Assembly (NCBI GenBank): GCA_003614675.1
Contig: ML002288.1
Span: 1-47,298, forward strand
Source of the DNA: Dimargaris cristalligena
Taxonomy: Eukaryota
Length of the DNA: 47,298 bases
Direction: 5' to 3'
A program made the position numbers and the translations under genes. The notes under the pieces are model-generated. The model made no database searches and was not told where the DNA came from. It was given only the letters and a program-made list of their open reading frames with translations. Within the stretch, counting starts at the first letter, position 1. Each line of letters opens with the position of its first letter. Below, one piece after another: positions 12,167 to 47,298 of this stretch.

Positions 12167-12190
12167 TATATATATATATATATATATATA
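12167..12190. repeat. (TA)n microsatellite just upstream of the 7TM start codon
   Basis: Direct reading. Confidence 0.9.
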
Positions 12191-12207
12191 CTGGTACTAC
12201 TGTAATA

Positions 12208-16242: not shown

Positions 16243-17721
16243 TTAAAGATTATAATCAGGTACTCCCCAGCCCTTGGGGACATGGTCAATTGCCGTGGTC
16301 TCAACTCCGCTTGGACTGCTATAAAAGGCCCGGGCGGGCGCGACGATAAAGAGAGCGCTCTCCAAATCCAGCCATTGATAGGTTGGAATGAGGTAGGGTA
16401 CCCGGTCACTAGCCGGCTCATCTTTAAATGCCTCGGTTTCGGGCCATTGCCCTTGCAGATATTCGGCGACCGGCGCTAAGCCCATGTGATTTAGCTCGTG
16501 AATGAACAGTCGCTGATAATAACTGGCCGCCCCGCTATTATTCCCTAGGGGGGTGGAGTATTCAAAAGACACATAGTCACGTAGCCAGGCAATGTGGTCG
16601 TTCTGTTGAGCCAGGGCGGCCAGCACGGTGATAAAGCGGGCGTGTTGGCCAATACAAGCGAGTCGTTCGGACCACTGCTTATTTTTGGCGGAACTCTTGG
16701 GTCCGCCCAGCGGCCCGGCCTGGGTGAAATACGCCTGGATTTCGCTCCACTGGCCCTGTCGGTACCAATGCCACAGCCCAGCGGTGATTACCCGACTCAC
16801 CGCAATGGGTATAACGACTACCGCTTCGGCGTAATCGAGTTTACGCTCCAGGAGGGCCTGGGGGTTAAAAGGGAAGTTTGCAGGGACCCTGCCGATATTC
16901 AACGGGGTAGTTTCGCCCAGTTTCGGAACGATATAAAGTAAATCAGCTAACATGGAACCAGTGGCTTGGGCCGCCAGGGGAAACTTCAGGGCCAAAGTGG
17001 CGCTGTCCAGAGTGGCTAGGCTGATGAGGGTACGGTGATTGGCGGAATGAGAGCTAGCGGCCGTGCTATGGGTGGATGGGGGGCGGCTACTACTATTACC
17101 TCCATTTGGTGACCCGGAAGTGCTCAGACTATTCTGGCCAACGGTAGACTTTGCCGACGGTGGTTTCGAAGTGGCCGGGAAATTAACCAAATAGACATCC
17201 CAGGTCTCCAGCGGTGCCAGTGTATACCATAAATCGGAGGCCTCATTCCATTGTGCTTCGCTAGTGAGAAGTCCCCGAATACCATCTGCGTATCTATCCC
17301 AATCGGTAATAATCTAATCCGTGCAATGACGAGTTGAGGTTAGACAAAGAGAATAGTCAGTAGGTCAGTTTAATCCTGCGAATCGAGCGGCAGTTGGGAT
17401 TGGATTTAGAGTCAGTTGACCGTATGTGAGTTATTAGAATACAGGGTCCATTCGACCTACCTGGGATGCAGTGAGTTGTAAAGGGGCCGGCTGGCTACTC
17501 TTCTCGCTCCAAATAGATGGGCCAGGGCTTCCGGTTGAAAGGTTCGGTGTGCTTAACTCGCTATAGCCGGGCCCTGCCATAACTCCCAAAACTGGGGTTG
17601 AGTTGATGGCGGTGTAAGTCTCGCCCGAGCTATACAATTTAGTGGGCCAGCTGGGAGCTCCTATCGCATTCTCTCTAGCGAGAATGGCTATCCAGGCCAA
17701 TATAGTGACAGATAGTTTCAT
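16243..17721 (-). CDS. Putative secreted protein of unknown family, paralog 1, 2 exons, 443 aa
   Basis: Exon 1 17721-17461 starts with signal-peptide-like MKLSVTILAWIAILARENAIG. Intron 17460-17314 (GTAGGT...TAG). Exon 2 17313-16243 begins IITDWDRY. Colinear similarity to 28946-30553. Confidence 0.8.
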
Positions 17722-18323
17722 AGTATTGCCGTTCGAGTGACGGGGGGCTCAGGGAGAAATCGATGGCGGGCAATGCTGTGAAGGTGTAGCAATAATGGGA
17801 AAACTTCAGCACTTTGAAAAGAGAAAAATACTTATGGAAGACCAAGATATCAGTTAGTCTGATAAAAGTGGCCGAGGCGGTTAAACCAGAGTCTCCAGAT
17901 ACGGTATGTTTAAAGTAGGCGGGGTAGCAACCTTGGGGAGGTTATATTTATCATTTTATATACATTACGTGTGTAGTCTAATCCACCGATAATGGACCTT
18001 AACGAATACAGCTAGTCCCTATGAGGACTGGCTATAGACAACCAAGGCACCAGCACATTTTGGGGAAGAAGTTCCGCATCCCCCGTTCCCTTTTGCTTTA
18101 AAAGCTATCGACTACTAAGACTGTGCTAATTCAGTTCCACATCTCCTTCTAAGAGCCTAAGCGAGGCGGACCTTAGTGGTACCACCACATCGCTATGGCG
18201 GTTTTTCAATCTCCCCCCCCCCCCAAAAAGCAAGTGGGCGATAAATATTCATTGACCATTGACTCTAGAAAATTCCGTAGAAAAATCGATAGTCCTACCT
18301 CTGCGCAACATACCCATCGAACA

Positions 18324-18329
<6 letters not shown>

Positions 18330-18360
<31 letters not shown>
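18330..18360. repeat. (TA)n microsatellite
   Basis: Direct reading. Confidence 0.9.
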
Positions 18361-18364
<4 letters not shown>

Positions 18365-21300
18365 CATAATTAGCAAAATAAAAAGTCTATATTAAATTCT
18401 TTTTTGGAATAGTCAAGGGAAAGGGGGGGATAATAGAGTGAGGAAAGGGAACCCTGTATAATTGTGGGTGAAAGAGGCTGTTGGGCTTTATTCCCAGTCT
18501 CCGATAAGGCTGGTGAGGTTCATTAATATCATACCGTATAGCTCCATAGTTATCATTGATGGATTTTTGGAGTGGCCAACAAAACTATATGCTAATCTAA
18601 TTGAAAGGAATACTACGTTTATAACTGCCAAAACGATGTATGTACCAATGTGAGCTATTTATATGATGCTGCACCTAGGTGCCAAGCATGGGCATATGCC
18701 TAGAGGTCATTTACAAATCTCACACCTTCAGCAGGGTGAAAGTATTTAAAAAAATTACCGCGTCAAAACTAGTATGCTCGGGACCAGGGATTAACCCGGG
18801 ATAAGCACACTTGTACATAGAGTTTTTTGTGGGTAGTTCATCGCCCACCAGCACCAAACACGGTGCGTTTGGTATAGCGACTATGGATTTAAATACCGTG
18901 ACTTAACTGCCCGAGTCAGGTAGTCCAATACTTCGAAATGACCATACCATATATAACCGATAGCAATAACCACGAAGGTTAAGCCCTTTAGTGGAATAGG
19001 AGATCCTCCGCTGTATGCTTTAAGGTGGAATCCGGTTATGCTCTTGGTGTCTTCTCCGACCATTGTAACTAAATCCCGCCCCATTCCCTATTTTATCTAC
19101 CGACCGAGAGGGCCCAAACCAGCTGAGAGATAGCTATTTATACCACATCTTAGGGTACCGTCTGTGTCACCGCTGCGCTATTCTTTTCCAACTTTAGAAT
19201 CGAAGGAAGTCATTGATGTACCACCCCCTCACCACCCAAGTAACTGAAACCAAAATGTGGGTGCATAAAAAATAAAATAAAAACAGATCTAGAATGCAAC
19301 AATGCCAGTTTCCATTTCTTGCCTAATTGCAAGTTTATCGGTCAAATTATAGTAATGTTGGTTTGCGCGGGCTGGGATGCCTCTATACTTTCTCCAGCGC
19401 GGGTGACCCTCCTACTATACAAGTAGGTAGAATGTGGCACAAAACAGGCCCAACCGAAGTCATTTTTATACTATTTAGGTTTTATAAAAACAATAAGTTT
19501 TTGGGGGGAAGGTGGTGGTATGCAATCCTAATAACTACAGAGGTGGGACCACTATTGAGTAGTTCAGCACAACTAACCCAAAATGGCATATAATAAATTA
19601 ACCCCGACTATATGGGAAAACCCCAACTTGCTGGGCCATTCGGTTCCAGATACTTCCCCGTAAACCACCGACCCCATTATGGCCCGTACATTAAAAATGA
19701 TACGCCATGGGGGACGATCAACCTCTATCTTAAGACTGTAGATTTTCCTCTATACCATTGGTGCTTCTTTGGAAAATGAAGGGCTTCATATTCGCCATGC
19801 GCTACTATATTATAGTATACATGTGCTTTCAATTGAATCCTAATGTGTACTCTGTATACAGCGGCCAATGATATGCGAAGTTATCTAACGGTCTGTTTTT
19901 CAATAACCATAGATTAATGGCCACACGTTTCCCAGCTTGCTTCCAAACAACTACTAGGCGGCAATCCCTTTTTGGATACCCATTAATTGCTTCGCTATTT
20001 TGATTAGCCTGAAACTGAGGCTTTATTGTACTCTACATAGAGTACACTCCAGCTTATCTGTCACGTGACGCTGTCGCCGCCACTTCCCACCATTGAGCTG
20101 TAGGAAATTGTGCGGTATTTTCTGCTGACTTGGGGGTAGTAATTGACAGGCACATATTTATTGCCAAGGAACACATGGGACATGTGCGCCATTACGACAG
20201 TTTGGGCCAGTCCACCCCCTGCTGACTGCAAGCCGCAGTTTATCGCATAGCCTCTATCCAGAGAAATCGGGAAACGGATAAATAAATGATCAAATCGACG
20301 GAATTCCTGGGTGATGACGTAGAGTGCAGCTTTAAGAAAGAAAGAAAAAGGGGAAGCTAGGCTGATTAATGTGACCCTCAGCAGATATACCAAAGCGCGG
20401 AGTGCATTCGGGCACAGTCGGAGGGAAATGGGAACCCCGACGTACGTAAGCAGCTGGTAAAATGGTAAGGAAAGAGGCAACCCCACACCACAGATAAACT
20501 TATCTTCTATTCGTGCAGGAGAGGCGAGTGAGGGGGGGCCAATCCCTTCTATTCGATTTGCCGTTGGTCCACGAGCGACGCCCAATTTTGTTAGTCAGAC
20601 TGGCAGTGAATCCCAGTCTGGTTGACTAACCAGATGGCTTCTGGGCCATGAATGCCAAAGAGCTGAGCTTCTCTCTGGTGTGTGGGTCCGACAATCCCTG
20701 GGGGAAGATTGGTGGATTTCAGTCGCCTACTTCCACTGACCGGCGACTTCCATTAAGCGGAGTTTCATCGATAGGTGGATTTTCGGTGTTATTGTTATAC
20801 GGATGGGGCGCATTTCTCTGCCAGTATTATTAATAGAGGAAAGGATTATAGTTTCCTTAAGGGTGTAAATTTAGACTAGTAGCTGGGCATACTGGCGTGG
20901 CGTTTGGGGTTAAAGCTGGTTAGGGACAATCTGGTATACAAATAGATATTGCTGTTTCCGCAATAGGGGTATTGTCGTCAGTGGGCGGGGTAGTTGCTAA
21001 TCTAGCCCAGTAAACGACACGCATATGGCCCAAAGGGACGGCGGCGGGGTCGGTATGACGACGACAACAAACCTGGCAGGAATGTTTTCTTAATATCCCT
21101 TGGGCTATGTATGGGGCACTACTACAGAATGTCGGGAGGGCGGGGGTCTAACTCAAGTCTGGCCTCCTTTGACTGCTGCATGTATCCCCCAGTCACAATG
21201 ACGTTGGCCCAGGCAGCCCCATCCTACGAATTAAGGCGTGGAGGTAGCTATTGTTTGGGGGGTATTACATCAGCCCGTGAGTCCCACGCATCTGGGACAA

Positions 21301-23615
21301 GGTCATTAAGGTTTACATGCCAAAAACCCTACACGTGTTTGGCAAGATGGAAGATTTCGAGAAGGTTTGCGTAGACCCTTCGATGTCACGGGGTTACCCA
21401 AGATAACAAACCCTGCCCCGTCGAGTGCAGTAGTAACCAGGGGGGTGTCAAAGTAAGCCCGCCAAGCCGTACGTAGAGTAGTAGTAGTTGTATTGTGGCG
21501 AAATATCCTTGGCACAAACCCATGGACAAGGCGACACTCCCCTACAAGTAGATGATTGTGAGGGGGAACATGAGCTCCGACCGATAGACCAGCCGAGTCG
21601 AGTCCTCCCTCTCCTTTCTACCCCGCCCAGCTTGGGACTTGGGGCTTGGCATTGTTTCGCCGCCAATGCTGGCCGAAGGGTCGTGACTTTGAATCGTCTG
21701 TATCACCATGACGCCTTCCCGTTTTCTTTTTTGCCCCTGTTAGAGGTGCTTGGGATTATGTAAGCCAGTACAGTGGCATCCCTTTCTTTATGGACCGCCT
21801 GCATTTTCGGGTGGTTCGGCGGATGCAAAGGGACTAAAAACTATGCAGGCTGCTGGGGTAGGTAGGGTATATCTTGTTAGAATAGCCCCGATAATCGGGG
21901 TATGTGTGTTTTCCACTCTTTCCACAGGACCCGAGTTCCGCCAGCCGGCCCCGCTCGATTTATGTGGCCACGGACGATAGCGAAAAAAAAGGCGCCGGGA
22001 AAATAGAGAGGGAGAGAGAGAGAGAGGCGTAGGCTACTTTCTATCAGGTGTCCCCGCCGCTCGTTTCTTAGGCGGATGTTTTTATCGAGAAAACCCGTTT
22101 GGTGGCTATTGGCCCGAGCGGTGCCGTTGCTCTTGCTTCGGATTCTGGCACTTGGCGAATCGTTGGCGTATCGGACGGACACGGGCACCAATCACCGGCG
22201 TGCCCTTGCGGCTCCTTCATCAGCAAGGCTGAAAGATGTGCCGCGCAGAGAGTGAGAATGGGAGTGGGAAAGGGGGAGAGAAGGAAAGAGGAGAAAACCC
22301 CCCATCGGATTGCCCTGCCTACTAGAGAGACTGTATGCGTTTATTATATTCCCTCTCGCACTATGTATGCTATATGCGGTGGTGCTATATTTCCCCTCGT
22401 GGACCTATATAAAACAGTATCCCTCTCCACTCTGCGTCGCCTATTTTTCCCTTTCCTTGCTTCATCCCCGTCTCCTCTATTCTTCCTCGCAGTCCTTAAT
22501 CAACAAGGCATTCTCTTTATCCTTCTTCCTTGCGCCCAGTGGATATATACATAATACCCAACTATACAACCCACTGGTAATTCAATTCGTCCTGCTTATT
22601 CACATCCGCCTGTGTGTATATATTATATATATCTTAGCCTCTCCTGATACTGCGTTGGTTTGGTTTTAGCCCAATCCCCCTTTTCATTCACTCCCGTTCG
22701 CTTGGTTTGGGTTACCAGTTAGCTGTTTCGGCTCCCCCTGTTCTTTTGGTTGATTGGGCGTCTCCCCCCCGCTCGGTTCCAACACCCCGCCGGTTTCACC
22801 TGTTTCGCCAATTTCTGGTAAGTATATATCCCCCCGGTTTGTGAAATAATCAAATAGATATGTAAAAAAACCCCCAATAACAAGCACCCCACCACCACTA
22901 CTGTGTATTTGGGGCTACTGTGGGTTGGCTGGGATGAGCCTGGCGAGTGTTCCGTTCTGTTGGTATTATTATCTACTCACCCTCTTGGAGCCTCACATCC
23001 ATCCAATTGCTTACGAAGCGCTCCTCCTCTCCATCTTGGCTTTTAACCATGCCAAAAAACACACAGTTGTATTCTTTCTCTTCTCTCTATCTCCTGCCTT
23101 ATATATCCCTCGTATTTCACATACATTGGGCAGTTCACACCTCTTTTGCTTTCCTTCTCTCTCAACCTGCTCTAGGGTTTTTTTATCCAAGTTGGGTTGA
23201 CTTATTTATCTCTCCCTCCTCCTCCTTCACTGCGCATTATTTATACGTTGCTAATCAGACGTTGCGTTCTCTATTCCACCCTAGTTCTCTGTAGCCTTTC
23301 CATCTATCCAACGTAGAAATAGTGTGAGGGTGACCCTACCCACCATCTTATAGTAGTCTCTCCCCCCTGTTTACTGCTCCATCCTCCTTGTTTGGCCTGT
23401 CTTTGTCCCCCCCCCTCGAGCCCTCTATTTCTTGGACTTCTTCCTCTGGGTTCCTGACCCCTTGGTAAACACACCTCATCTGCGACGGCCCCCTAACTAT
23501 ATAATATTACCCCGTCCTTTTCTCCCTCTATGCTCCATCTGGTTTCCCTCTTTCCTGTTCAGGCGATCTCTCCTATTATTTCCTTATTTAGCACTATTAG
23601 CTCAACACTGCCACA

Positions 23616-27145: not shown

Positions 27146-28945
27146 GGTGGTATTCTAGAGACGGTGGTGGTAGTAGTCGAAATTAGAGTACTCTGCTGGA
27201 ATAAGCAGGAAACACAAAGCTAAGATTAAGGGGGATGGTACAAGAGGCCGAAGCACAAAAAGGGTGGGAATGGATGACAAGGGCAGAATGTCTAGATGAA
27301 ACCGCGGCTACTGTTTAATGGGTGGAAAAAAAGGGGAGGGGGTGTATTATAATAGTTTACCAAACGAATGGGCGGGGCCAAAATAAGGCGAGAAATAAGT
27401 AGAGGGGGTTTTGCGCGTGGGTCAGTGTATCAGGGTCAGGTGAAGAACAACTGGGCTGGGCTCTCCTTTATCCACATTCCAACTAATACTAAGCTGAAGA
27501 AGGAAGATGCCTTTTTGGCAAGTAAGTAAGTTGTTATACGGAAGGAAGGGTTGTTGGGCGTTATAAAGTAAGTGCAGGCCACCCAAGGCAAGAGATATTG
27601 GCCCGGCTGGTGGCGCCCCAGTAGTACTCCCGGCTCTATGACGAAAGTGGGGTAGTGGGAATAAATGGGCGGGCTAGCGAAGCGTTGGGGACTGGCGAGG
27701 AGGTGTAACCCCTCCCCTACTGGCCGAGCGCGCTTCCTTAGGAGTTGCTTAAGCTCCAGATATAGAATATATATTATTGTGCACATCACCCTGCCTTGTA
27801 TTTGCACTAGCTATTTACCTATTCATCTGGTTTAAGTGACTGTTTAACAACTTCTCTGCTCCACAGCCGCCTTCAATCCCAACCCCCAATGTATTACACT
27901 CCTTTTGTTAGGGCCATACTGCCACCATCTTGATTACTTTACGACGAATATCTTTGTGTAGTCAAAGTGGGATATTGTTGATTATCATATCTCAGTTCCT
28001 GAAAATAACACAGTCCGTCGTTCACTTTGGATATCAACGCATTTGTATTTTACTGGCCTTGCACGTTGGAAATTCACACTGGTGCTATATTAATCTGCGG
28101 GATGCGCACTTGGCTTACCATTACTTAAAGATGCAGTTTTAGAATGAGGAATGGCGATATGGTGCACCCCACCTCCCCTTTCATACTAATCCGTTGCTCC
28201 CTTACTCGGCCTCGTCCTGTAATATAGATATATATATATATTTCAGTGAACGGCGTATCCTAGATCTTTTCTATCAGTCCATCAGACTAATATACCCCCG
28301 TGTCATCCTCGTTGAGTAGACGTGTATGACTCTTGAGCGCACACCTTTCCCATCGACGACCCAAGCAATAATAGGATGTGCACAGTGGCGTTTCCAAAAG
28401 GAAAGGCTCATTCAACTACAGTGTAGTACAGAATTCGTTCCCCCATCCGAAGGAGAGGTAAGGGGGGACCCAGTCTCTGGGTTATCCTATGAAGGTCCGG
28501 GGTCCTCTAATCTCACCCTAAACCTACACCAAAAGCCCCCGTAAGAGGGAAAACGACCCGAGCCTTGCCATGAGCGACTCCCCCCCAAAAAGCTAGTTTA
28601 GCCAAATTTTGCGTTCCGAATAGTAGTGCTACCCCCTCCCCCATCTCTCACCTTCCTCTTGGGACCACTCTCTCTCTCTCTCTCTGAGATAATTATAAAT
28701 GATAGCGACTCCTCCTCTATTTCGCAGATATTATGGACCTCTTCTCTCTTTTTATATATATGTATATACACTGGCACCCTTATAATCATATATAGTTACC
28801 GTTTATACTGCTCCCCTTCCACACACGCATCAACTCCGTGATTTAATAGTCATCCAAGTTGTTTCCGCCTCCAACCTAGATTATTTTTTTGATATCATTC
28901 CTTTTCTCTGCCACCGGCTCGTCTCCAAGGGCTCGATTTAAAAAT

Positions 28946-30553
28946 ATGAGGGTTTCTACAACTTTGCTGAGTCTAACCGCCCTTCTCGCGAATCCAGTTG
29001 CATTGGGGAGCTTCTTTCCTCCCATTTTTTCAACTAAACAGAGCACAGTCGCGCTCACGGAAACTGGAAGCGAGCCCCCGCACATCATCACTGGTGGCCA
29101 GACCCCAGTTTTAGCTCGATTTGGTCAACCCGTACGTTCGTCCAGGCCGCCTACTGTAAATAGCCAAGAGGATACTCCCCCTCTTTCAAGCTATACCGCT
29201 ATAGACGTATGTTTCCTATTTGGTAGCACATACACACACCCCCTCACGCATCCTCCTCAAATTGCTACACATCTAAAGGTCCCACATATGCATTTCCAAT
29301 GACTTACGCCGCCATAATTTACCACCAATCCCTTCCCTATATCAAACTGTACGCCCCAATTTCATACTTAGATTATCGACCACTGGGACACCCATGTCCT
29401 TAATATCCAACAACTTCTGATAAGCAAGGAAATGTGGGATACGTACTCCCCCTTGTGGTATACACTCGCCAATTTGGAGACCTGGGATACCTACTTGAAG
29501 AGTCTTCGGCCCAGGCCCAATGCCCCGCCCGCCCCCAGCCAGATGGAAATTGAGTTGGGCCGCCGCTACATGGCCGAAATGAAAAAACGGCAACAGAAAC
29601 CTGGCCAAGCCGTTGCACGCGAGTCCCTAGCCTACAGCCGTCGCATCCCCGTCTGTTTGAGAGAAATTAGCCCCGAGTCCCTGAAGCAGGAATTCCCGGT
29701 GGTGAGCCGGGCCACGGGTAAACTATTGGCCGATTTACTGGTCCTAGTTTCCAACCGGCGCGGCCCCCCTCTCTCACCCGCCGCCGACCCTACGATGATC
29801 CCGGCCGCGGAGCCCCAGTTTCTCATCGACCGCACGTTGAGTTTCGGGGCGGCCAAGGTGATTCTACCAACGGTGGTAGACCGAATGACTACGGCTGGGC
29901 TATGGCGACTGTATTGCCTGGATCAATGGGACGAAATCCAGAATTATTTTAAATTGGCTGGACAAGTGGCCGAAAAGGCCTCGGCGACCCGCGGGGGTGT
30001 TGGAGGTGAGGGGATATCCCGCCGGACGGCCCTCATTGGTCAGCATGCCCGGCTGATGACCACCATGGCGGCTTTATTTGAAAACGAGGACCGGGTGAAG
30101 TGGCTTCTCAACTATATCGATTTTGATTTTCCGAGTACTGACCCCCATCACCTCATCGAGTACCAGCGGCAGTATCTGCAGGACTTGAATAACCACCAAC
30201 TGGGGAATGCGGCTGGGTTCCTGCATAAAGTATGGCCCTTGACGAAAGGCCTTACGCGGATGTCGGCCCAGGTATGGTCAGACACTAGCGCTAGGGGAGG
30301 AGAGAAGACGGCGACTGTAATCTACGGACAGTCCCCTACTAAACCGGATGGCCCGACGTCGGGGAATAATTTCCCGTTCCTGAACGAGCAATACACGTGG
30401 CTAAAGTGGAATGGCTTTCTCTATGTGGCGGTGCCTTCCTTGGCCTTTCGTGATCCAAATAACGACATTAAATTGTTGTCTAGAAACACCCCGGCCGATT
30501 GGCCGGCCATGGCTTACCACAGAGATGTTTCAATTCTTGAGAGGCCCATGTAA
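28946..30553 (+). CDS. Putative secreted protein of unknown family, paralog 2, 2 exons, 480 aa
   Basis: Exon 1 28946-29206 starts MRVSTTLLSLTALLANPVALG. Intron 29207-29371 (GTATGT...TTAG). Exon 2 29372-30553 begins IIDHWDTH. Colinear with paralog 1. Confidence 0.82.
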
Positions 30554-32000: not shown

Positions 32001-32026
32001 TATATATATATATATATATATATATA
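32001..32026. repeat. (TA)n microsatellite
   Basis: Direct reading. Confidence 0.9.
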
Positions 32027-35612: not shown

Positions 35613-37100
35613 TGTACAGGAGAGCTTAGATGTAGTGTATTCCTCCACCAGCCCCACCGGTTAGTTCTTTAATAACCCTGTATTGCTACTAGCGTCCAAT
35701 TCTATTTTTATATTTATTCCAAAACCTGATTATATATTATATTGCAATTTATTTTTACATGGCATTTCACCGCAGCCGCTCCGGCGGGGATTCTTTTATT
35801 TCTATTATTCTATGGATTTTATCACACATGATAGTCTATTTGTTTTCTGGAGGTTACACAATGGGGAAGGGGGTTTTTGAATTTGGAATGTTTAAGTGTA
35901 TGGGAGAGTGTATTTTTCTCTTTTGGATGACAAAAGTAGGTCTCTGGGGGAATTGGCCGACAACGTGGGGCCAGTAGGCTAAATCAAGGTAAATAGGGCT
36001 CTGTCCAAGGGGTCAGGGACCCCACCCGATAGACAAGGGAGGGGGGCATTCCTCAGCTTGCGTCATATGGGAAATACACGGAAAGGCAGGACAAATCGAG
36101 AGACGGATAGAATGTGGTCAGGATCAACCCAACAGGTGGGGAGGGTATTAGGTATTATTAGGTATTAGGTGGTGGTGGTTAGTCAGGGTCATAATTGTGT
36201 GGGTGGGAGGAATGGACATGGAGTATCACATGACTTGTAGGCCAGGTATAATGGGGATTGGTGAGGAATAAGGCTATTTATAGTAGTGGTCGTAGTTATA
36301 AGGGAGAGGGCACTATCCGCTAGATAGGAATAGGTAATGGGCCTGAATGAGTATATTATAGACTAGCGCAACTGCCCTATCTCCCCTTCCCTTCCACTCA
36401 CACCATACCACTTTCCCTCTCTCTCTCTCTCTCCCGCACCTTACCACTCCTCTGCTTCTATAAGGCTCCACTTCTCCCTCCCTCACCAGCTCACTGGTTT
36501 TGACTTCCGCTATTACTTTTCTCTTTTAAAACCACTGGTTCCCTTCAATCGCTTCGTTTCGGCTCCTATCTTTTTATAAATACGGAAATATCTGGAGCAT
36601 AACGCCCCGACTCTAGTTTTATTCTTACTGCCTCTCTCCGTTTCTCGACATTCACCAGTTCCAGTCTTATTTGATATATATATATAACCTTACTCATTTA
36701 CATTTACACAGCCTTCCACGTTTCGGTCGCCTCCGGCCATGCCGTCGTTACAGACTGCCCTCCCTTATTCCCAAGCTCCTTTTGTTTTTTTAGCCCCCCC
36801 AAGTCCGAGGCTTCCCTTGGTGAACCGGACTGTGGAATCCCACCACGCCCTTTAACCGCTACTACTACTACTACCGGTACCACTTTGAATACAGCCCCGC
36901 CGCCCGTCGCTTCTGTACCGCCTGGAATTTCTAGGGCCAGCTTGAGTTCGAGTTCCACTTCGCCTTCGACACCCGGTGTCAGTAGTGGTCCCAGTTCGGT
37001 TTCGGGTCCTCCTTTGACGCCTGCTTCAGCAGCGTCTTCGTCACCCCCCTTTGCGCTTCGCATCGGTTGGCCGGACTTTGGGGTCCCCTTTGCTCCCCGC

Positions 37101-39061
37101 ATGCTCTTCTCGTATCTACTTAGTTCCCGGCGAAACTCCGCTCCCCAACCCCCCCTGCTTAGCTGTACCTCGGAAACTGCTCCCCCGGCTTCGTCGAGTA
37201 ATGGGTGTGGTGGTTCCTTGCCCTCCCGGCGGCCTGCCTTAGACGGGACAACGGCCCACCCTTGTTTGGCGGACCCGGGGTCGTCCACCGGGGGGGTGCC
37301 CGGCCCGGACCCCGCCGTCGCCCTGTCCTACCCCCTGGCCCGCACTTTCCCCCGTGGTGGGGGAGGTTCGGCCACCGCCGCCGCCACCACCCCCCGGTTG
37401 GGTGAGACGGCCAGTGGAGGCGGGGTAAATGGGAACCCCCACCTCAGTCCCCAGGCGAGTTACCAGACGCTGGGGCGGCGGCCCCTGCTGGCCGACCAGC
37501 CCGAACAGAGCCACTCGGCCCCGCACCCGGTCCCGACCCACCTGTTACAACGGACCCCATCCGTCAGTCATATAGAAGGGGGTGGGGCCACTGCTTCGGC
37601 GACAGCAACAGAGGGAGCGGCAGCGGTGGGACCCGTCGTCCCTCTGCACCTCTCGGCCCCGGGTCTGGGTTCGACCGCGGAGTCGTCCCCAACTTTGGTT
37701 TCCCGGACCTCCACTCCCCTTTCCGACCCCGAATCCCCTTCTCCTTCTGTTCTCCCCCACGTATCCTCCCGATTATTATTGACCGGTTCCCTGCCCCATA
37801 TGCCCCGGAAACGACCCCGCACGTTTTATCACCCCGTTCCCCATATCATGCAGGTAAGTAGTCAATGAAGGGGGACACCGCCCTGAATTCAACCCTCCTT
37901 GGGCCATGCAGTCGTTCAACCGGTTTTTTACGGCGGCCCGGTGGCTCCGATCCCGCAACCTCCCGCGACTTAGGAGGAGGGTCCACGGAAAGAGCCGTGT
38001 TCGGAGGTGGTACAGGATTCTGGACTTATTCGGGTCTACTGTGTATATACACCCCCTACCGCACCCTTCATCTAAAATTAACTACGGAACCCTTCTAATA
38101 TTCACCACCTGCATATTCTGACATTTTGGAAATTGCCCCCCCCCCCATATACCCCCCTAAATTATCCCGTCGTCCCTCCGTCGTAGTGGTACTCTTGGGA
38201 TTGTGGCCTGGCCTGCGTCTGTATGATCCTCCACTACTACGGGCTCACCCAATTCAACATGGAGGATCTCCTCCGCTACTGCAAATGCGAGTCCATTTGG
38301 ACGATCGATGTCGCCTTCATTCTGCGCAAATTCTTGGGAGTTGATTTTACCTATTACACCCGCTACCTAGGGATCAACCCCGAATACGCCGGCAATACGT
38401 TTTACCAGGACACCATCGACGAGGACCAGCAGCGCGTCGAACAGCTGTTCCAAGTGGCCCATCGGAACAACGTGCGTATCATTCGGATTGCCCTGCCGCT
38501 CCTGGATATAAAACGCTTTGTTGCCGAACGGAAATTCGCGATCATTATGTTGGTTAATGCGCGGCTCCTGCGGTGCGAGTATTGTACGGTAGGTATTACT
38601 AGTCCCTCGCCCCATCTATCCTCCCCCCCTTTCGCTTCGTTTGGTTTAGGACTCGTATTTTAATAGAATAATGTTCAAGAAGGATTAGTTACGTACGCCC
38701 CGGCGAATTGGTTTCACCCCTACAACATTGCTAATGCCTATTTCTATGCTTAATTGTAACCCTTGTTGAATGTTTTTTACTCACCCGGCTACGTTGGGTA
38801 ACCATTACACTATATTCCCCTCCGTAGCAAGAGTCCAAGCGGACGCACTGCCTATCCTACACCTGCCTAAAGACGCTCTTTGACACCAAGGAGTACGTGG
38901 GCCACTTTATCCTGGTGGTCGGGTACAACTTCATCCTCGATACGTTTTATTACCGGGATCCGGCACTGGAAGATGAGCTGTGCCAGATTAAGGCATCGGT
39001 TCTCGAAAAGGCCCGGGCCAGCGATGGGACTGACTTTGACAGTATCGTGGTGCGACTTTGA
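37101..39061 (+). CDS. GUCD1: GUCD1 (papain/C39-like fold) with long low-complexity N-terminus, 3 exons; start uncertain
   Basis: Exons 37101-37853, 38187-38588 and 38828-39061. Splicing gives PVPHIMQ|WYSWDCGLAC; also SIWTIDVA, YVGHFILVVGY, YYRDP and ARASDGTDFD. The first in-frame ATG is 37101 but the frame is open from ~36675. Confidence 0.85.
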
Positions 39062-40373: not shown

Positions 40374-40398
40374 ATATATATATATATATATATATATA
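40374..40398. repeat. (TA)n microsatellite
   Basis: Direct reading. Confidence 0.9.
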
Positions 40399-40867
40399 TT
40401 CATAAATGATTAAGAAAGACCTTGGGGCGCGGGGAAGATGGGGGTTGTGCTGTATCCTAACAGAATGACCAGCGAATACCGACCATTCGCCAGCCAAGGC
40501 CCCTTATTCTCTTCATGATAATAGTCAACCAAAAGTGGAGTGTATTCTGAGAGCCCCTCAACGTGCGGACCCCACCACTCCGACTACGACTTCCAATTGC
40601 GGGGACTCCGCACACCCACGCACATCCACACCTACTCACTAACTAGTAGAGTCCCCTTCCCCTTTTCGTCTTTGTATTTTTTTGGTCCTTTATTCAACTT
40701 ATCTTATTTCTATGTGCCTCTTAATACCTAATATTCTTCAACCCAGCTCTACTAAAACTAAACTCCGCTTTTCATTAACCGCCATTGTCGTCGGCCGTGC
40801 TGTCCAACGACCTTTCTGATGCTCACCAGCCAGGCGTAGCACTGGGCTTTTATTATATCCCCCTCTT

Positions 40868-40892
40868 ATATATATATATATATATATATATA
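40868..40892. repeat. (TA)n microsatellite just upstream of the Pro-rich gene start
   Basis: Direct reading. Confidence 0.9.
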
Positions 40893-40916
40893 CAGCTATA
40901 GAGCCAGCGGACGAGC

Positions 40917-43169
40917 ATGGCCCGCAGTGCCACGGCCTCCAAAAAAAAGCCTGCGAGCCAGCGGTCTCGTAAGGTGTCCACCACCTCCTCCCATTATAGC
41001 CAGAGTCCCAGCGGGATGGGCATCTTCCGGGAGAGTTTCGACTTTGATTCCATCGAAGATCCCTTTGCCAAGAAGGATAAGATCCCCTGGGAGTTGGCCT
41101 CGCAGGCCCACAAGAAGGCCACCACCAAGGCCCAATCTCCGTCTACCCCTATACTCCCCGCCGCACCGGTGCCGGCCCCGGCAGCCCTACCGCCTCTTTC
41201 ACCCGTCGAAGCGCCGCCTACTTCACTTTTAACTCCGCCCGAACCTCTCTCCCCTCCTAGTAGCGATTCTCTTCATTCTCTTCCTACGCAACAACAACCA
41301 CCCATATCACTATCGCTATCACTGTCGCCACCACAGCCCCAACCCCAACCACCTGCTCAGCCCCGCTCCGCTCCACGCGACCGGAAACCACCGCATTCGG
41401 CCCAAACCATCACCCTCACCCCCTCGGCTTTACGAGTGACCACCGGTAACAAACCCGCCTCTTTACCCGCCCCCGGGAGTCCCCAAGAGTCGACCATCCC
41501 TCTGAGTGGTGGGGCCTCAAGCGGAGGTGCAGGCGTAATCTCCCTTCCGGTCACCCCGCACCAGCGGACCAACCCCGCCGGCCGGGCCACCTCCCCCATG
41601 TCCGCTCCCTCTAAAAACCTATCCATCGATTTCTCCGCCATTAAAGATCCGTTCAAGAAACGGGATAAAATCCCCATGACACCGATCGATAGTAACCCGG
41701 CCTCGAACCGGATTAGTCTCAATACCGATGCGGCCCTGATGCCGGGCGTCGCCGCCACCGTCACTGTTATGGTGCAGGATATTGACGGGGTGCCGGTGAA
41801 TCGTTACGCACCACCCCCTCCGCATCTTACTCCACCTAGTTTAGCCAATTCACCGCCCCAGTGGTCGCCACTGTCGGCGTTATCATCACCACCACTACCC
41901 CTACCGTCCACCATCGCGCCGCCGTCGTTGTCGGTAGCCCCCGCCACACCGGAGAACCATCATTCAACCGCCCAGCCGCGGGCGACCAGTCCGCTACCAT
42001 CGCCGAATAAATCCATCACCTTTACCGCGCAATCCTCCCCGCTGCCGCCGGAGGTCTCCAAGAAACACGACTTATTGCCCACTCCCTTCCGCAAACGGGA
42101 CAAAATCCCCATGTATTCCAAGTCCATGGAGGCCCTGGCGCATTCCAACTCCATCCGCCTTTCGCGACCACCCGGCAGCCAACCCCAGACCCCGTCCCAC
42201 ACCAAACCAGCCACAACCAGTAGCCCACCTTTAAGTTCCCCACCGGCCCTGGGTCGTCCGCCCCCACTGCGACTGAATAGCCCCGATTCCGGCCTTGGTG
42301 GGTGGTCACCAGGGCCCGTGGAGGAACGCCCGACTGCTCCACCGGCCGAATACGACAGGCCTCCGGCAGCAGCCACGACGGGCGAAATTCTGATCCCGAC
42401 GGTCTATAAACAACTCCGGCGGCAGGGGCATGCAGCCATTGCCGAACTGGATGACGACATGCGGCGGCGGTACTTTCTCACGGATAAATGGTACGCCCGC
42501 CAAAAGAAAATGTCCCCCCTCATGGATAGTATGTATGTCCTGGGCGACGGAGAGCATTCCACTCCTACGCCTACTCCATCCCACGGACACAGCCATGCCT
42601 CTGGCCCCCGGACTTCCTCTCCGCTAAGCCGGAAGGCCACCGCCGGTCGGGCTTCGGCGGCGGATTATATGTTGTCGAACAGTCCCCACCGACCGCCATC
42701 GGCCCAACCTATGCTCGCTCCGCCGAGCCGGACCGCGACACCCCAGGTACCCGGCGACGAACCGCGTCACCCCGGACGTCATCCTACGCCCCATGCCACG
42801 GCATCCCTGGATTCACTCGAATTATCCTCGCTCGACCCGAGTAGCGCTAACCTGCAATCGCTTATTTCAACCGACCCGTATCCGTCGCCCCAGACCCCTA
42901 ACATGCCGTCCCCGGATACACCGAACTCCCACTACCACCAGCAGATTCCTATGCCCCCGCACAGCCACAACCACAACCACCAATACCACCACTCTAACCC
43001 TTACCAATCCTACCAAAATCCACCACCGCATCCCGCTCACCACCACCAACCTACTTCGGCCGCCTGGACGTATCCTCAGCCCCACCCCGAATCACCCCCC
43101 AGTTCCGAGCATCCGGGCCACCAGCCCCCAGCGCGGCGTTCCCGGGTCTGCTGCTGTGCCCTTATGTAA
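40917..43169 (+). CDS. Pro/Ser-rich, largely disordered 750-aa protein with three PFxK(K/R)DKIP repeats and C-terminal CCCALM
   Basis: Long uninterrupted ORF with an internally repeated motif and a CaaX box preceded by cysteines and basic residues. Confidence 0.8.
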   Translation: MARSATASKKKPASQRSRKVSTTSSHYSQSPSGMGIFRESFDFDSIEDPFAKKDKIPWELASQAHKKATTKAQSPSTPILPAAPVPAPAALPPLSPVEAPPTSLLTPPEPLSPPSSDSLHSLPTQQQPPISLSLSLSPPQPQPQPPAQPRSAPRDRKPPHSAQTITLTPSALRVTTGNKPASLPAPGSPQESTIPLSGGASSGGAGVISLPVTPHQRTNPAGRATSPMSAPSKNLSIDFSAIKDPFKKRDKIPMTPIDSNPASNRISLNTDAALMPGVAATVTVMVQDIDGVPVNRYAPPPPHLTPPSLANSPPQWSPLSALSSPPLPLPSTIAPPSLSVAPATPENHHSTAQPRATSPLPSPNKSITFTAQSSPLPPEVSKKHDLLPTPFRKRDKIPMYSKSMEALAHSNSIRLSRPPGSQPQTPSHTKPATTSSPPLSSPPALGRPPPLRLNSPDSGLGGWSPGPVEERPTAPPAEYDRPPAAATTGEILIPTVYKQLRRQGHAAIAELDDDMRRRYFLTDKWYARQKKMSPLMDSMYVLGDGEHSTPTPTPSHGHSHASGPRTSSPLSRKATAGRASAADYMLSNSPHRPPSAQPMLAPPSRTATPQVPGDEPRHPGRHPTPHATASLDSLELSSLDPSSANLQSLISTDPYPSPQTPNMPSPDTPNSHYHQQIPMPPHSHNHNHQYHHSNPYQSYQNPPPHPAHHHQPTSAAWTYPQPHPESPPSSEHPGHQPPARRSRVCCCALM

Positions 43170-44197
43170 TTCTAATATCTTTTTCTCTCCCCTCCTCCAC
43201 ACCCCCCTTTCCTTCTCCCCTCCCTTTACTTTTTCACCCGCCCTACCCTGCCCTTCGGTTCGACTTTCCGGCTCAATGATGCTTTTTTTATACGATTTAT
43301 TTATTGTTCATGTCCGTAGTTACTTATGTTCACCATACCAGGCCGATTATTAGGCCGATTTTATCTAATGCCTCTGGATATGCTGTTTGAAACGATATGT
43401 GGCCCTATTGGCCCCCCTTAGAAAAATACCTTTATGGTTTTACTCGCCCTAGTTTTTATTAAATTCCGAGTGGTTGATTCTTTATAAACGAAATGGTTCA
43501 TGCCTCTTTACTAGTAATCCCGGAGATTTCATTGAAGAGTTATATCCAATAATCCGGGATCGTTAAATTTCAAAAGGAATGGATGGACTCTCGTGGTTAA
43601 AAGAGGTCCACGGTTGCTTAGCTGTCATATAAACAAGAGGGATGTGACTGTTACACAAACGGCCTTTAATGCAACCCCACCAGGTCCTCCACTGTTACTT
43701 GAGGCGGTAGGTCACCTGTGGAGCTTTGGGGTCAGCCGTACCCTCTTGGGAGGAAGAATACTTGTCCACAAGCAGGACAGGCGGAAGAAAGCTCACTTCG
43801 CAAAGTAGAGGGGAGGGGGTGGGCGCGTTAAAGGACTCTCGGTCCTTAATAAAGTTCGCTTGGCTGGCTCCCCCAATCCAGTTGAGTTGTAAATAGAAGA
43901 CACCACCACCACCATTGCCGCTGTCGAGTCAACTCAACCCCCTCCCTCCCTTCTCCACCTTTGTCATTTTGTGAATTTCCCCTCCATTAGTCCCATTCCT
44001 CGGTTGGACTTGCCCTGCTTAGCCTAGAGACCGTGTCATTCGATCCTCATCCCCACAACCACCCCCTCCTCTCTTTTTCATCCAGCCTTACCCCCCTCCC
44101 CCCAACCTCTCTCGCTTGACGACCCCGCGCCCGTATTATACCCCTTTTCCACCCATTCACCTTCCATTTCCCGACCACTACCGTCGCCCGCACCACC

Positions 44198-45081
44198 ATG
44201 GCCGCTCTGCAGAAGGACCGCAAATTCATCGCCGTTATTGGCGATGAAGACTCCGTGACCGGGTTCCTCTTATCCGGTATTGGCCACATTGACGCTCGCC
44301 AGAAGTCCAACTTCCTTATCGTGGACTCTAGTAAGTAAGCCCCTTACCCGCTGTTCCTGCCGAGCTTAAATAAGCCAGTGAAGCGCTTGGTGTTTCTTGG
44401 CGGGGCGGGCCGGCCGGCATGTGTAAAGGAGTTCAGGGTATATATACTCCGAGAATTATGAACTTCTCGTTGGCCAATATACGCCCCGCTTCGCTGCGCT
44501 GACTTTACCCCTCCCCCGTCATTCCCGGCCCGCACAGTTAGGTTTCCTTTGCGGTATTTAGGATGTTCTATAGGTGTATTGCTAAATTTGGATGCCTCTA
44601 ACCCAATATCTATTTATATACGCTGGTGGCTTTATTTATAGAAACCCCTCTGTCGACAGTCGAAGAGGCTTTTACCGAATTTACCAAGCGAAAGGACATT
44701 GCCATTATTCTAATTACCCAACAGGTAGGTTCGCCAATAGTAGCTCATATCTACTCACCGGGTTATTCGTTTGTTTTACCGCCTCATTCCGCTCCTCGTA
44801 TAATAGCCAAACACCTTTGGGTGTATTCTTAAATGGCCCACTACAGCATCACCCCCCTATTAACTCCATACACATCTATCAAATCGTATTACCACCACTC
44901 CGCTCGTCAAAAACTCTACCCCTACCCCCCCCCCCGCCAGGTGGCCGAGGAGATCCGCCATCTCATGGACGAACATAATGCGGCCTTCCCCACCGTACTT
45001 GAAATCCCCTCCAAGGACCACCCGTACGATCCGTCCAAGGATTCCGTGCTCAAGCGAGTCCAGCGTCTGTTTGGCGAATAA
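44198..45081 (+). CDS. VMA7: V-type ATPase subunit F, 3 exons, 118 aa
   Basis: Exons 44198-44330, 44642-44724 and 44941-45081. Motifs [30 protein letters not shown] and [21 protein letters not shown]. Confidence 0.97.
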
Positions 45082-46488
45082 TTCATTTAATCCAACCACC
45101 CTAGTCGTGGCGGGAATACATACATATATATATATATATATATTCAACACTCCTTGTGAATCAGCAATTTTGCGGATTTTACTCGGAGGGTGGATATACT
45201 ACAACGTTTGTCCCTTTTTCTCTTTCCCTCTCCCTGAGTCGGCCCACCCCTTTGGTTCCATAAAAAAATATTCGAGCCTTACTGGGTAAAATGCAATGTA
45301 TTCACCGGGCCGTTTTTTGTATGGTGTTATTTTCCCCTATAAAGCATTTCCTTTGTAGCAATTTCCCCTGGGCCCTTTAACTGCTGTAGAATGGCTCAAT
45401 GATGCTGGGAATGGGGGCTAAAATGCGCAATTGAATGACTATGTAGTCGCTGAATTGAATCGAAATTCCCAGTATAGAGGCTCTTCGCTGCTCCGGCCCA
45501 AATATCAAAGTGTGTCTACACTAGTATAGCTTTTCTATCCAGTAGTGGGAAATTGGTCGGACACACCACCTGATTTCCACCCGCCGGGCTCATCCTAAAG
45601 GTGGCTGGAAAGTGTAATGAAGAGTTGCACAAGGGACTGGTACTCTAAAGGGCATTTTCCCCAAGGGTACGCGTCTAACTAAAGGAACGTATCTCAGCCG
45701 ATAATAGGGCCCTCAAAAGCAATTGCTAATATTCGAATGGTCTGCCGTATCCTCCGTTGATGGGGTAGTACGCCTGTTCGTAGAGTCCTTTCTATATTAG
45801 TGCCAGTATCGGCCAGGTTCCTTAAAGAAACCACACACACTCTCACACTCTCACCCTCTCCCCCATCCCACATGAACATGGTGGCACAAGCGAAATAACC
45901 CTCATCCCTTTATTCTATTTAACATCCATTTATTCCGTAAAGCTGGAATAGGAATCCCGAATGGACTAAAGGGTCGAAGAGAAAAAGGGGGAGCTCATCA
46001 GGGACCTCTCTATTCGACGGGAAATTCGGGTGCGTGAGATTACCTTCGCCAATGAAAACACAGGATGGCTCCACCCAACCCGCAAAGATGCCACCTGTTG
46101 TTACATGTACCGGTAGGGCCGTATAATTTTTGGCTATGCTCGTCGGTGACACACCACCACAGCCTCCCTATTCTCATTGCTGGAACGTATATGTAGCGAT
46201 GGTCTATAAAAGCATGTCGACGGACCTCTCACTCCCGTGGTAGTATATAGTACACAGCTTCCAATTGCCAATCCTTGTTCCCTCTTTCGCTCTGCTTTAC
46301 TAGCCCTTTAACCGTATTTTTGCAAAAAAATAATTTTGCGGTTGGATTCTATTATTATTATTATTATTATCACAATTTGGACCAGTATTGAATACTAGGC
46401 CATTTCGCTACTCCACGTACGTCTATAGACTGACCTCGATTTTCATTCAACCTTTCTTTTAAGTGAACTCGATTACACTCTCGAAAAT

Positions 46489-47298
46489 ATGAGAGCTTTC
46501 ATTTCTGTGTTTGCCTTGATAGGACTGCGTATCGCTGAAGTGGTTTCCCTGCCCCCTCCTTGGCCCATTCTGGGACAGTCCAACCGCGCGGCCGAACCCG
46601 TGGTATTCCGAAGCGGGAATGATGCCGATATTTCTGGCAACGACTATTCTCTCACCGAGTCGCCCAGTTCAATCAGCGATAGAAGCAGCATCTTTAACCC
46701 GTCTAGCTTCCCCTCTGCCGACGATCAGGTAGAACTTAATGATGGCTTTATTCCCATCTTATACATATATATATATTTCAAATAATTTAAGATAATCTAT
46801 TACCGGGAATGCGTCGATTCATCTGCACAGGGTTTAATTAGACGTATTAACTTGTTTCCGTTTGCAACCGCTGGGCCTGAACATTATTATTATTATTGAT
46901 TCCTAGATTCCCGGGGATTGGGACAGCAGTGAGACTCGCCTACTCGAACGTTCCCTTACCAGCCCTGAGGACTGGAGTAGTGCCTCTAACTCATGGATTA
47001 AGTTGGCCCCCCTCGAAATTTTGGACACTTTGGCAGCCATCCTTTCAGAGAATGAACTGGCTCGTCTGAAAAGCGGGGCGGGTCCCGAGGACAAATCCGA
47101 GGACCCGGAGACCGGGGGACCGAATACCCAGGACCCTGGTCTCCGAATTCCCATCGATTTCGCTAAAGTTGAGTTGATGGGGGCTTTCGAGCGCGAGTTT
47201 CCGCTGGTGAACCAGGCGATCTCTACTGCTACTACTACACTGGCCTATTTGCTGAAGGTCATTCCCGACCAATCAGTACCAGTATCAGTATCAGCATC
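46489..47298 (+). CDS. Putative secreted protein of unknown family, paralog 3, 3'-truncated by the window edge
   Basis: Exon 1 46489-46728 starts MRAFISVFALIGLRIAEVVS. Intron 46729-46906 (GTAGAA...CCTAG). Exon 2 from 46907 is open to the end: IPGDWDSS...WSSASNSWIKLAPLE...RIPIDF...EREFPLVNQA...LAYLLKVIP. Confidence 0.75.

Follow-up and report, generated by a model that had tools for sequence, protein, structure and literature searches.

The closest described systems are effectors that carry an F-box. As reported in PMC4617103, the SSGP-71 proteins of the Hessian fly (Mayetiola destructor) combine an F-box with LRRs and bind host Skp proteins, with one member lacking the F-box; they are proposed to hijack the host proteasome via Skp. 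Bacterial F-box effectors include RipG/GALA of Ralstonia, as named in the same source, and AnkB of Legionella, as named in PMC2790608; in the form described there, these share an F-box and a repeat-like helical part that recruit host SCF, occur as paralog sets with redundant function, and are injected by type III or IV systems without an ER signal peptide. The family described here, from the fungus Dimargaris cristalligena, resembles SSGP-71 in that a eukaryotic parasite places an N-terminal F-box-like motif ahead of a variable, putatively target-binding part, with some members lacking the F-box, and the same hijacking of the host proteasome is proposed for it. SSGP-71 is used by an insect on a plant and carries LRRs, whereas the Dimargaris family belongs to a fungus living on fungi and carries a helical domain without a match; Skp binding is reported for the former but putative for the latter, and no sequence relationship between the two was found or is implied. 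Unlike the bacterial effectors as described in those sources, the Dimargaris members have a signal-peptide-like start. Cellular F-box proteins (PF00646, PF12937; FBXW7, FBXL2, FBXL5, FBXW8) share with the family motif its L-P-x-E start, two short helices, length of about 40 residues and N-terminal position ahead of a binding domain, but the family motif follows a predicted signal peptide, has a degenerate third helix, stays below the Pfam cut-off in close members and is absent from the three genes studied here. A preliminary description of this DNA had guessed at a (myco)parasitic fungus, and D. cristalligena is indeed a haustorial mycoparasite of moulds, in an order, the Dimargaritales, of haustorial mycoparasites found mostly on Mucoromycotina, as stated in PMC6899921.

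The window, by which we mean the whole 47,298-nt stretch analysed, contains three genes of the family, and a six-frame profile search of it found no fourth copy. Paralog 1 begins at an ATG at 17721 on the minus strand: exon 1 (17461..17721, −; 87 codons) encodes a signal-peptide-like start of ~21 aa and a Ser/Pro/Thr-rich linker (45% S+P+T) without an F-box, the phase-0 intron (17314..17460, −; 147 nt, GTAGGT..TAG) has CTAAC 30 nt before the acceptor, and exon 2 (16243..17313, −) encodes the family domain, 356 aa and helical with a small beta part, for a total of 443 aa. Paralog 2 begins at 28946 on the plus strand, with 87 codons in exon 1 (28946..29206, +; signal-peptide-like start and Ser/Pro/Thr-rich linker, no F-box), a phase-0 intron of 165 nt (29207..29371, +; GTATGT..TAG) in which no CTRAY-type branch motif was found, and an exon 2 (29372..30553, +) encoding a family domain of 393 aa, for 480 aa in total. 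Paralog 3 begins at 46489 on the plus strand, with 80 codons in exon 1 (46489..46728, +; signal-peptide-like start and Ser-rich linker, no F-box), a phase-0 intron of 178 nt with a weaker donor (46729..46906, +; GTAGAA..TAG) and the first 130 codons of exon 2 (46907..47298, +), after which the contig ends. Its exon 1 is identical at 30/70 aligned residues to exon 1 of a paralog on contig C795, and an open 237-codon frame at the end of that contig is probably its remainder. Reading exon 1 through the donor meets a stop after 95, 118 and 98 codons in paralogs 1, 2 and 3, so splicing is required in all three.

These models bear out the preliminary description, which had proposed three paralogs of one architecture (a signal-peptide-like start, a phase-0 intron after codon 87, 87 or 80, and a shared block); all motifs it quoted are present. 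Paralogs 1 and 2 match each other at E 1.4e-46, and paralog 3 scored 27.7 bits (E 6.4e-8 over 991 six-frame segments; best of 200 shuffles, 1.0) on profile A1, which was built without it, and is therefore a genuine but divergent member. A hypothetical protein of D. cristalligena in a public database matches paralog 1 at 100% identity, and a public gene model of paralog 1, itself a prediction, has the same junction (ASQ|IITDW). Upstream of the ATGs lie TATA-like boxes, each a consensus match only, at 17956..17962 (−, 241 nt before paralog 1), 28694..28700 (+, 252 nt before paralog 2) and 46205..46211 (+, 284 nt before paralog 3); TATA-like words were the only motif enriched in the upstream regions, relative to a control set that is largely coding sequence. 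As had been noted, the genes are interspersed among housekeeping genes, their neighbours being EF-Ts, CDC123, a Ras-family GTPase, an aminotransferase, a PX protein and a mitochondrial carrier.

Both the lineage-specific expansion and the fast divergence proposed for these genes are evident genome-wide. Four queries located at least 40 distinct close family places in the D. cristalligena genome, and adding three distant clades or queries brought this to ~108 as a lower bound, broken copies being included in both counts; paralog 1 alone gave 27 matches among 37 scored. Close members are only about 17–33% identical to paralog 1. A profile search for relatives, a step the preliminary description had suggested, found 53 proteins among 1.84 billion representatives when run with 23 sequences, and the 31 that could be identified (27 from D. 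cristalligena, four from Tieghemiomyces parasiticus) are all from Dimargaritales; a word-based search with a 48-sequence alignment returned two proteins, both from D. cristalligena. That the three genes belong to a real family is virtually certain, and we lean towards regarding it as a superfamily specific to Dimargaritales, composed of a predicted signal peptide, a (degenerate) F-box, a phase-0 intron and a helical domain of ~330 residues. No description of it was found in the open-access literature searched, including that on secreted F-box effectors of fungi and on F-boxes in D. cristalligena. The main texts of two genome papers covering D. cristalligena do not mention F-boxes, and one of them contains no word beginning with ‘secret’ or ‘effector’; an expansion of F-boxes could still be recorded in the domain-count tables of PMC6784888 or PMC9866270.

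The F-box-like motif was seen in relatives of the window genes. Among the exon-1 peptides of close members, 13 of 30 contain [LFI][PA]xE[ILV], and on a profile of 13 cellular F-boxes from the same genome ten of these 13 scored above all 200 shuffles, whereas each of the other 17 peptides was reached by at least 25 of 200. In 12 of the 13 motif members the phase-0 donor lies 37–39 codons after the Pro/Ala of the motif, which places the end of exon 1 at the F-box border. Profile–profile alignment (hhalign) of the motif with cellular F-boxes gave a probability of 94.9% (E 4.6e-8). Of 17 PDB sequences matching at E ≤ 10, seven belong to F-box proteins (four to FBXW7, and one each to FBXL2, FBXL5 and FBXW8); none reaches E ≤ 0.001, and the top match is MgtE (E 0.0037), not an F-box protein. 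Seven of the 13 motif-bearing members match a Pfam F-box at E ≤ 1, and no close member reaches the cut-off of PF00646 or PF12937 (best 20.6 bits vs 24.3); the third-helix motif (VC/SxxW) is mostly lost. The PDB, hhalign and Pfam tests are partly circular because the 13 motifs had been pre-selected for an F-box-like pattern. In the AlphaFold model of a full-length member, short helices form at the motif (38–47 and 50–60, pLDDT about 90), and the third is continuous with a long main-domain helix (H64–91).

More distant members retain stronger F-boxes. We found 48 Pfam F-box-like loci in the genome and analysed 30, of which 11 also encode a signal-peptide-like start in that exon; of 15 segments downstream of such loci, nine scored 9.6–50.6 bits on the family profile, more than any of 30 shuffles, and the score of L107 is helped by a relative inside the profile. 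Two of these nine loci, L094 and L099, have F-boxes above the Pfam cut-off (34.2 and 27.9 bits), with family-profile scores of 9.6 and 24.0 bits for the exon 2 that follows, and profile–profile alignment of the family with the clade bearing Pfam-grade F-boxes is weak (probability 20.8%, 41 columns). The motif also occurs in a Tieghemiomyces member. UniRef labels seven records ‘F-box domain-containing’, a label of uncertain basis because other members are labelled ‘Alginate lyase’ or ‘DUF1800’. Taking these comparisons together, the motif is very probably homologous to the F-box.

The explanation we favour, which we hold to be somewhat better than an even bet, is that the family consists of secreted effectors in which an F-box and a helical domain recruit host SCF, the window genes being F-box-less binders. 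In exon 1 of the three window genes, Pfam F-boxes found no match at E ≤ 10 and the genome-built F-box profile gave no score, and a search of the window with the family's own motif profile found nothing; since none has an F-box signal, the F-box mechanism touches the window genes only through family membership. The reading of the preliminary description, a secreted host-interaction family, was supported but incomplete, as the Ser/Pro linker it described stands in place of the F-box-like motif of many relatives, and that motif offers a likely mechanism for the family. On the midpoint-rooted family tree, F-box presence changes seven times, with at least three of the changes forced, in keeping with an ancestral-type F-box and several losses; the F-box-less branch holding window genes has support of only 94/99 and 87/99, and paralog 3 is unplaced. 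Repeated loss, the 17 of 30 close members without the motif, the sub-threshold Pfam scores of the rest and the fusion of the third helix with the main domain are also what would be expected if the motif were a decayed relic or a structural cap, on secreted helical effectors that bind host proteins or mop up Skp1 and form no working ligase. We judge this improbable but worth serious weight. The L-P-x-E start, the length and the exact intron position are kept in 12 of 13 members that are only about 20% identical, which points to selection, and distant members retain Pfam-grade F-boxes. Binding without ligase activity may hold for the window genes under either explanation.

Secretion, the other part of the favoured effector reading, had been proposed from the N-termini of the window genes. 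Their best 9-residue Kyte–Doolittle values are 2.84, 2.34 and 2.82 for paralogs 1, 2 and 3, and by the same hydropathy heuristic, a loose one that fires at 22% of control positions, exon 1 is signal-peptide-like at 30 of the 33 close loci for which upstream DNA was available. At distant loci the count is 38/43, against 65/300 random control positions, and is rough since a wrong upstream frame was taken for some loci (e.g. L122 and L163). Most N-termini are laid out like cleaved signal peptides, short and basic–hydrophobic–small, and their sequences are freely variable, whereas the 13 cellular F-box control loci were read as having no such start. It is highly likely that the proteins are secreted. 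F-box families are expanded in plants and nematodes, and one could instead imagine an uncleaved membrane anchor on unexported proteins that serve as an expanded set of the parasite's own SCF adaptors, for example in non-self recognition or ER turnover; F-box function is confined to the cytosol or nucleus, the genome has a Skp1 gene of its own besides another Skp1-like locus, and export is predicted by heuristic. We think this unlikely, as most starts resemble cleaved signal peptides, the 13 cellular control loci were read as lacking them, and all identified members come from mycoparasitic Dimargaritales.

The shared exon-2 domain, in which the preliminary description had recognised nothing, matched no known family in these searches: Pfam returned nothing at E ≤ 1 for the three window products and nothing above a cut-off for the 53 relatives, and the family profile met only pheromone-binding proteins among PDB sequences, at E > 1. 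Structure prediction, which like the Foldseek search had been suggested in the preliminary description, gave confident helical folds for paralog 1 exon 2 and a full-length member (pTM 0.83–0.84), with a predicted low-confidence Ser/Thr-rich insert at about residues 45–90 of the former, where most relatives have a YxxFLxxN helix. Neither model matched the PDB at E ≤ 0.001, nor did the full-length model match BFVD at that threshold. F-box proteins were absent among the Foldseek matches listed, as expected for a motif that forms a 40-residue part of a 477-residue model. In a wide VIA-align search the best matches, at background level for helical models (Z 6.3, rmsd 4.0, 158 aligned; Z 7.4, rmsd 4.5, 208 aligned), were generic helical solenoids, HEAT/ARM/TPR and the alginate lyase toroid being the folds considered. 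The models point to a helical domain without a structural match in the PDB, an absence that does not prove a new fold.

In contrast to the LRR or ankyrin repeats reported for RipG/GALA and AnkB in the sources cited above, neither repeat was detected among Pfam matches of the 53 relatives at E ≤ 0.3, and hhalign found no internal repeats. Against D. cristalligena ankyrin repeats, hhalign probabilities were <1% for the whole family, at most 11% for the best of five segments and <3% for ten segment pairs. The ESM Atlas feature neighbours of P0028 (0.87–0.92) are giant-virus and chlorophyte ankyrin-like proteins, the nearest named clusters all being ankyrin, but they fall below the naming bar (≤148 shared features) and serve as a lead only; an ankyrin origin is not supported by the sequence comparisons. 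The neighbours of paralog 1, unnamed bacterial clusters of low recognition, were discarded.

Disulphide-held small extracellular proteins, and the small cysteine-rich secreted effectors of fungi, which are under about 300 aa and have conserved cysteines, contrast with this family: paralogs 1 and 2 measure 443 and 480 aa, and cysteine makes up 0.54% of family residues with none conserved. Twenty of 22 close members retain E36, W38, D39 and R94 (paralog 1 exon 2 numbering), and this, with the UniRef alginate lyase label, could suggest an extracellular enzyme or a wall or surface protein with the P-L-E-x-W-D block as its active site. We find that idea very doubtful, because the conserved columns are mostly hydrophobic core residues, the block is altered in distant members, and an N-terminal F-box-like motif would be hard to explain in an extracellular protein. 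Similarity by chance or faulty gene models, for which the predicted status of the junctions, the weak donor of paralog 3 and the missing branch motif of paralog 2 might speak, are largely refuted and exceedingly improbable given inter-paralog E-values down to 1e-47, an acceptor exactly 33 codons ahead of the PLExWD block in most members, the confident fold, and 96.8–100% identity in nine same-species public protein pairs.

Under the favoured explanation, secreted F-box and helical-domain effectors, the proteins would enter the secretory pathway, as their N-termini suggest, and would pass through the haustorial interface to reach the host mould's cytoplasm, a delivery we infer from the lifestyle and from the F-box acting only in the cytosol or nucleus. 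By homology, motif-bearing members would attach to host Skp1, with the variable helical domain choosing a host protein for ubiquitination and destruction. Members with a Ser/Pro linker, including the window genes, would retain the helical domain and serve simply to bind, inhibit or decoy host targets. A complex prediction for mature P0055 (23–420) with Gamsiella Skp1 as a stand-in scored 0.00 twice, run without alignments and with an uncertain partner fold, and counts neither for nor against binding. An effector role is suggested by the sequence features of the family, and that at least some members functionally recruit host SCF seems to us marginally likelier than not. The fullest version has about an even chance of being right: roughly a hundred secreted F-box proteins with a PDB-unmatched binding fold, delivered via haustoria to reprogram host SCF, with F-box-less branches as decoys or inhibitors.

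Very little has been learned of the means by which biotrophic mycoparasites control living host hyphae, and a secreted F-box-like family would offer a concrete mechanism that is cheaply testable, through Skp1 binding and then target capture. With the intron at the F-box border, the hook can be retained or lost as a single exon, and the family thus offers a natural series with and without it. The value lies in the family rather than in the window genes alone, which are of moderate interest by themselves. If the explanation is true, it would add a well-folded domain without a structural match and extend secreted SCF hijacking to fungi, giving the strategy of the Hessian fly, Ralstonia and Legionella a parallel in which both parasite and host are fungi.

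The preliminary description had proposed three genes of one family, at 17721-16243 on the minus strand (paralog 1), 28946-30553 on the plus strand (paralog 2) and 46489 to the contig end on the plus strand (paralog 3), and these models were borne out, with first exons of 87, 87 and 80 codons, phase-0 GT-AG introns of 147, 165 and 178 nt, and a conserved exon 2. Paralogs 1 and 2 are complete, encode 443 and 480 aa and match each other at E 1.4e-46, and against a profile built without it, paralog 3 reaches 27.7 bits (best shuffle 1.0). A six-frame scan found no further family copy in the window. Exon 2 of paralog 1 is 100% identical to a Dimargaris cristalligena hypothetical protein, the sole match among 8000 scored candidates, and the public gene model of paralog 1 has the identical splice junction. 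Elsewhere in the window, a multi-exon gene at 11902-13340 (+), for which Pfam gives no family at E<=0.001, has several hydrophobic stretches and on visual inspection resembles a GPCR gene, and long Pro/Ser-rich frames at 40902-43169 and 36675-37868 (both +) gave no convincing Pfam family, only one weak ZirS_C match below cut-off.

The finding is real and larger than first reported. A 23-sequence profile searched against 1.84 billion representative proteins retrieved 53 relatives at E<=0.001, and the 31 identified comprise 27 from D. cristalligena and 4 from Tieghemiomyces parasiticus. In the genome, four close queries gave 40 distinct places and three distant queries added 37, 20 and 11, for 108 in total; both 40 and 108 are lower bounds, with copies containing stops counted in. 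The 23-sequence profile search connects two distant clades with the core (E 9.2e-9 and 7.7e-4). The third connects through a score of 30.4 bits on a wider profile, but a profile-profile comparison with an alignment containing it was weak (20.8%). Many superfamily copies carry in-frame stops or split frames (on contigs G000:C180, C9, C26, C1697, C657, C872, C1781, C2008 and others), suggesting birth-and-death turnover. In one public gene model, P0056, a family member is joined to a tail that we take to be phosphoribosyltransferase-like, probably a fused annotation.

The gene anatomy is shared. Exon 1 is signal-peptide-like at 30 of the 40 close places and not at 3, the others lying at contig edges (4) or not having been fetched (3). 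Such a start, called by a hydropathy heuristic rather than SignalP, is found in 38 of 43 distant loci versus 65 of 300 control positions. In most close members the acceptor lies exactly 33 codons upstream of a P-L-E-x-W-D block, and a TATA-like word precedes the ATG in 25 of the 30 with exon 1. Exon 2 contains 0.54% cysteine and no conserved Cys. Loci L011, L014 and L015 (also L012 and L026) end in basic amphipathic helices, with a moment of 0.75-1.0 and a net charge of as much as +8, which could target membrane or nucleus; the helices are strongly basic in the first three and absent from paralogs 1 and 2. A sub-branch of database proteins (P0054, P0035, P0036 and P0185, in the clade with C40) has less hydrophobic N-termini and a further decayed F-box-like motif, and may be non-secreted.

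The window is an entire contig (C81), and paralog 3 is therefore truncated by the assembly. It stops at about residue 140 of paralog 1's domain, and an open frame at the end of contig C795 starts at about residue 151; window 46907-47298 and G000:C795:12490-13201 (L004) probably complement each other as parts of a single family gene, with matching orientations at two contig ends that share no sequence overlap. The closest relative of paralog 3 exon 1 is the next paralog on C795 (30/70 residues), and in the public gene set the counterparts of that paralog and of paralog 2 lie five locus tags apart, each on a contig of identical length. C81 and C795 are probably neighbouring contigs, and we infer a local cluster of four family genes.

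Among exon-1 peptides of close members, 13 of 30 contain the motif [LFI][PA]xE[ILV]. Scored against a profile of 13 cellular F-boxes from the same genome, with 200 shuffles per peptide, 10 of these 13 outscore all shuffles and the other three are reached by 1, 2 and 13; each of the 17 motif-less peptides is reached by at least 25. A phase-0 donor lies 37–39 codons past the motif's second residue in 12 of 13, a match independent of the scoring, and the intron therefore marks the F-box end. Comparison of the motif alignment with cellular F-boxes gives a probability of 94.9%; against PDB sequences at E<=10 the alignment gives 17 matches, 7 of them F-box chains, with MgtE on top and none reaching 0.001. 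No close member passes the Pfam F-box cut-off. UniRef labels 7 records 'F-box domain-containing', a Tieghemiomyces pair among them, which we give little weight since other members bear unrelated labels. In this motif, part of the family is homologous to F-box proteins. The three window genes are not F-box proteins: they contain no F-box signal at all, and their exon 1 is similar in length to that of their relatives but 36–45% Ser/Pro/Thr.

A PF12937 search of the genome found 48 places, 18 above cut-off. Among 30 such loci retrieved, a signal-peptide-like start shares the F-box exon in 11, and most of these have a GTAAGT-type donor just past the F-box. Scored with the family profile, 9 of 15 downstream segments of F-box loci beat every shuffle, and two of the 9 follow F-boxes that pass Pfam. 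Of the 43 distant-clade loci, 16 score at least 4.5 bits with the F-box profile, and L-P-x-E is visible by eye in further ones. Across L094-L114 (e.g. G000:C409:5253, C1130:7517, C1427:2122 and C510:16637), many Pfam F-box-like matches are genes of signal peptide, F-box and intron, and much of the F-box complement of this fungus may be secreted. One signal peptide plus F-box gene (L106:467-1345, G000:C654, minus strand) has an exon 2 that resembles ankyrin on inspection and gives no match to the family profile; the gene may represent another secreted F-box architecture. Besides the canonical Skp1 on C77, a second, divergent Skp1-like locus lies at G000:C314:14224-14538 (L117, L118).

In a midpoint-rooted tree of the shared domain (47 rows, paralog 3 fragment unplaced), paralogs 1 and 2 fall together with the two C795 pieces (94/99) and then with two more F-box-less genes (87/99), a branch placed among F-box-bearing rows with support below the strict mark. 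The distribution of the F-box takes 7 changes to explain, of which strong branches force at least 3, and a single-change history occurs in no bootstrap tree. As the motif is also present in Tieghemiomyces, the simplest account is that an old F-box has been lost repeatedly.

The preliminary description had proposed modelling the core and searching it by structure, and this gave no identifiable fold, with no Foldseek match at E<=0.001. AlphaFold2 gave pLDDT 81.9 and pTM 0.83 for paralog 1 exon 2 (mainly helices, with three short strands, the insert at ~45-90 being disordered), and 82.9 and 0.84 for a full-length F-box-like member, with short helices at the motif. The best structural Z scores, 6.3 and 7.4, are to generic helical solenoids, a modelled resemblance that fits a binding scaffold and does not itself indicate function. 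An ankyrin origin, prompted by language-model neighbours, was not supported on testing.

The build of the genes, the size and range of the family, the homology of some members to F-boxes and the lack of an F-box in the window genes are directly established, and for the family's working we somewhat favour host-directed SCF adaptors. Family proteins would be secreted and pass into the host cytoplasm, where F-box-like members would bind Skp1 and take targets, a predicted recruitment with about even chances, and the window genes' products would act as binders or decoys. The reason is that an F-box following a signal peptide can do nothing within the secretory pathway of the cell that makes it, but fits a protein bound for another cell. 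A relic F-box, in effectors acting without a ligase, is possible at distinctly lower probability. Membrane-anchored adaptors serving the parasite itself are improbable, and an extracellular enzyme is more so. An artefact is scarcely credible.

Host-directed SCF adaptors would resemble Hessian fly SSGP-71, Ralstonia RipG and Legionella AnkB, as described in PMC4617103 and PMC2790608. According to the review PMC4617103, SSGP-71 proteins combine an F-box with LRRs and bind Skp proteins of the host, and the F-box is missing from one member. The family belongs to none of these three, with no sequence link and no LRR or ankyrin detected. A passage of PMC8146833 calls the F-box domain's role in eukaryotic pathogenicity unclear, and the main-text portions consulted of PMC9866270, PMC6784888 and PMC13188720 do not contain 'F-box'. 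Our search of the main texts of openly available papers found no published description of this family. Dimargaritales are haustorial mycoparasites with mostly Mucoromycotina hosts, according to passages in PMC6899921. Built on a shared domain without a match, such adaptors would be a known strategy at work in a kingdom and host system from which we found no description of it.
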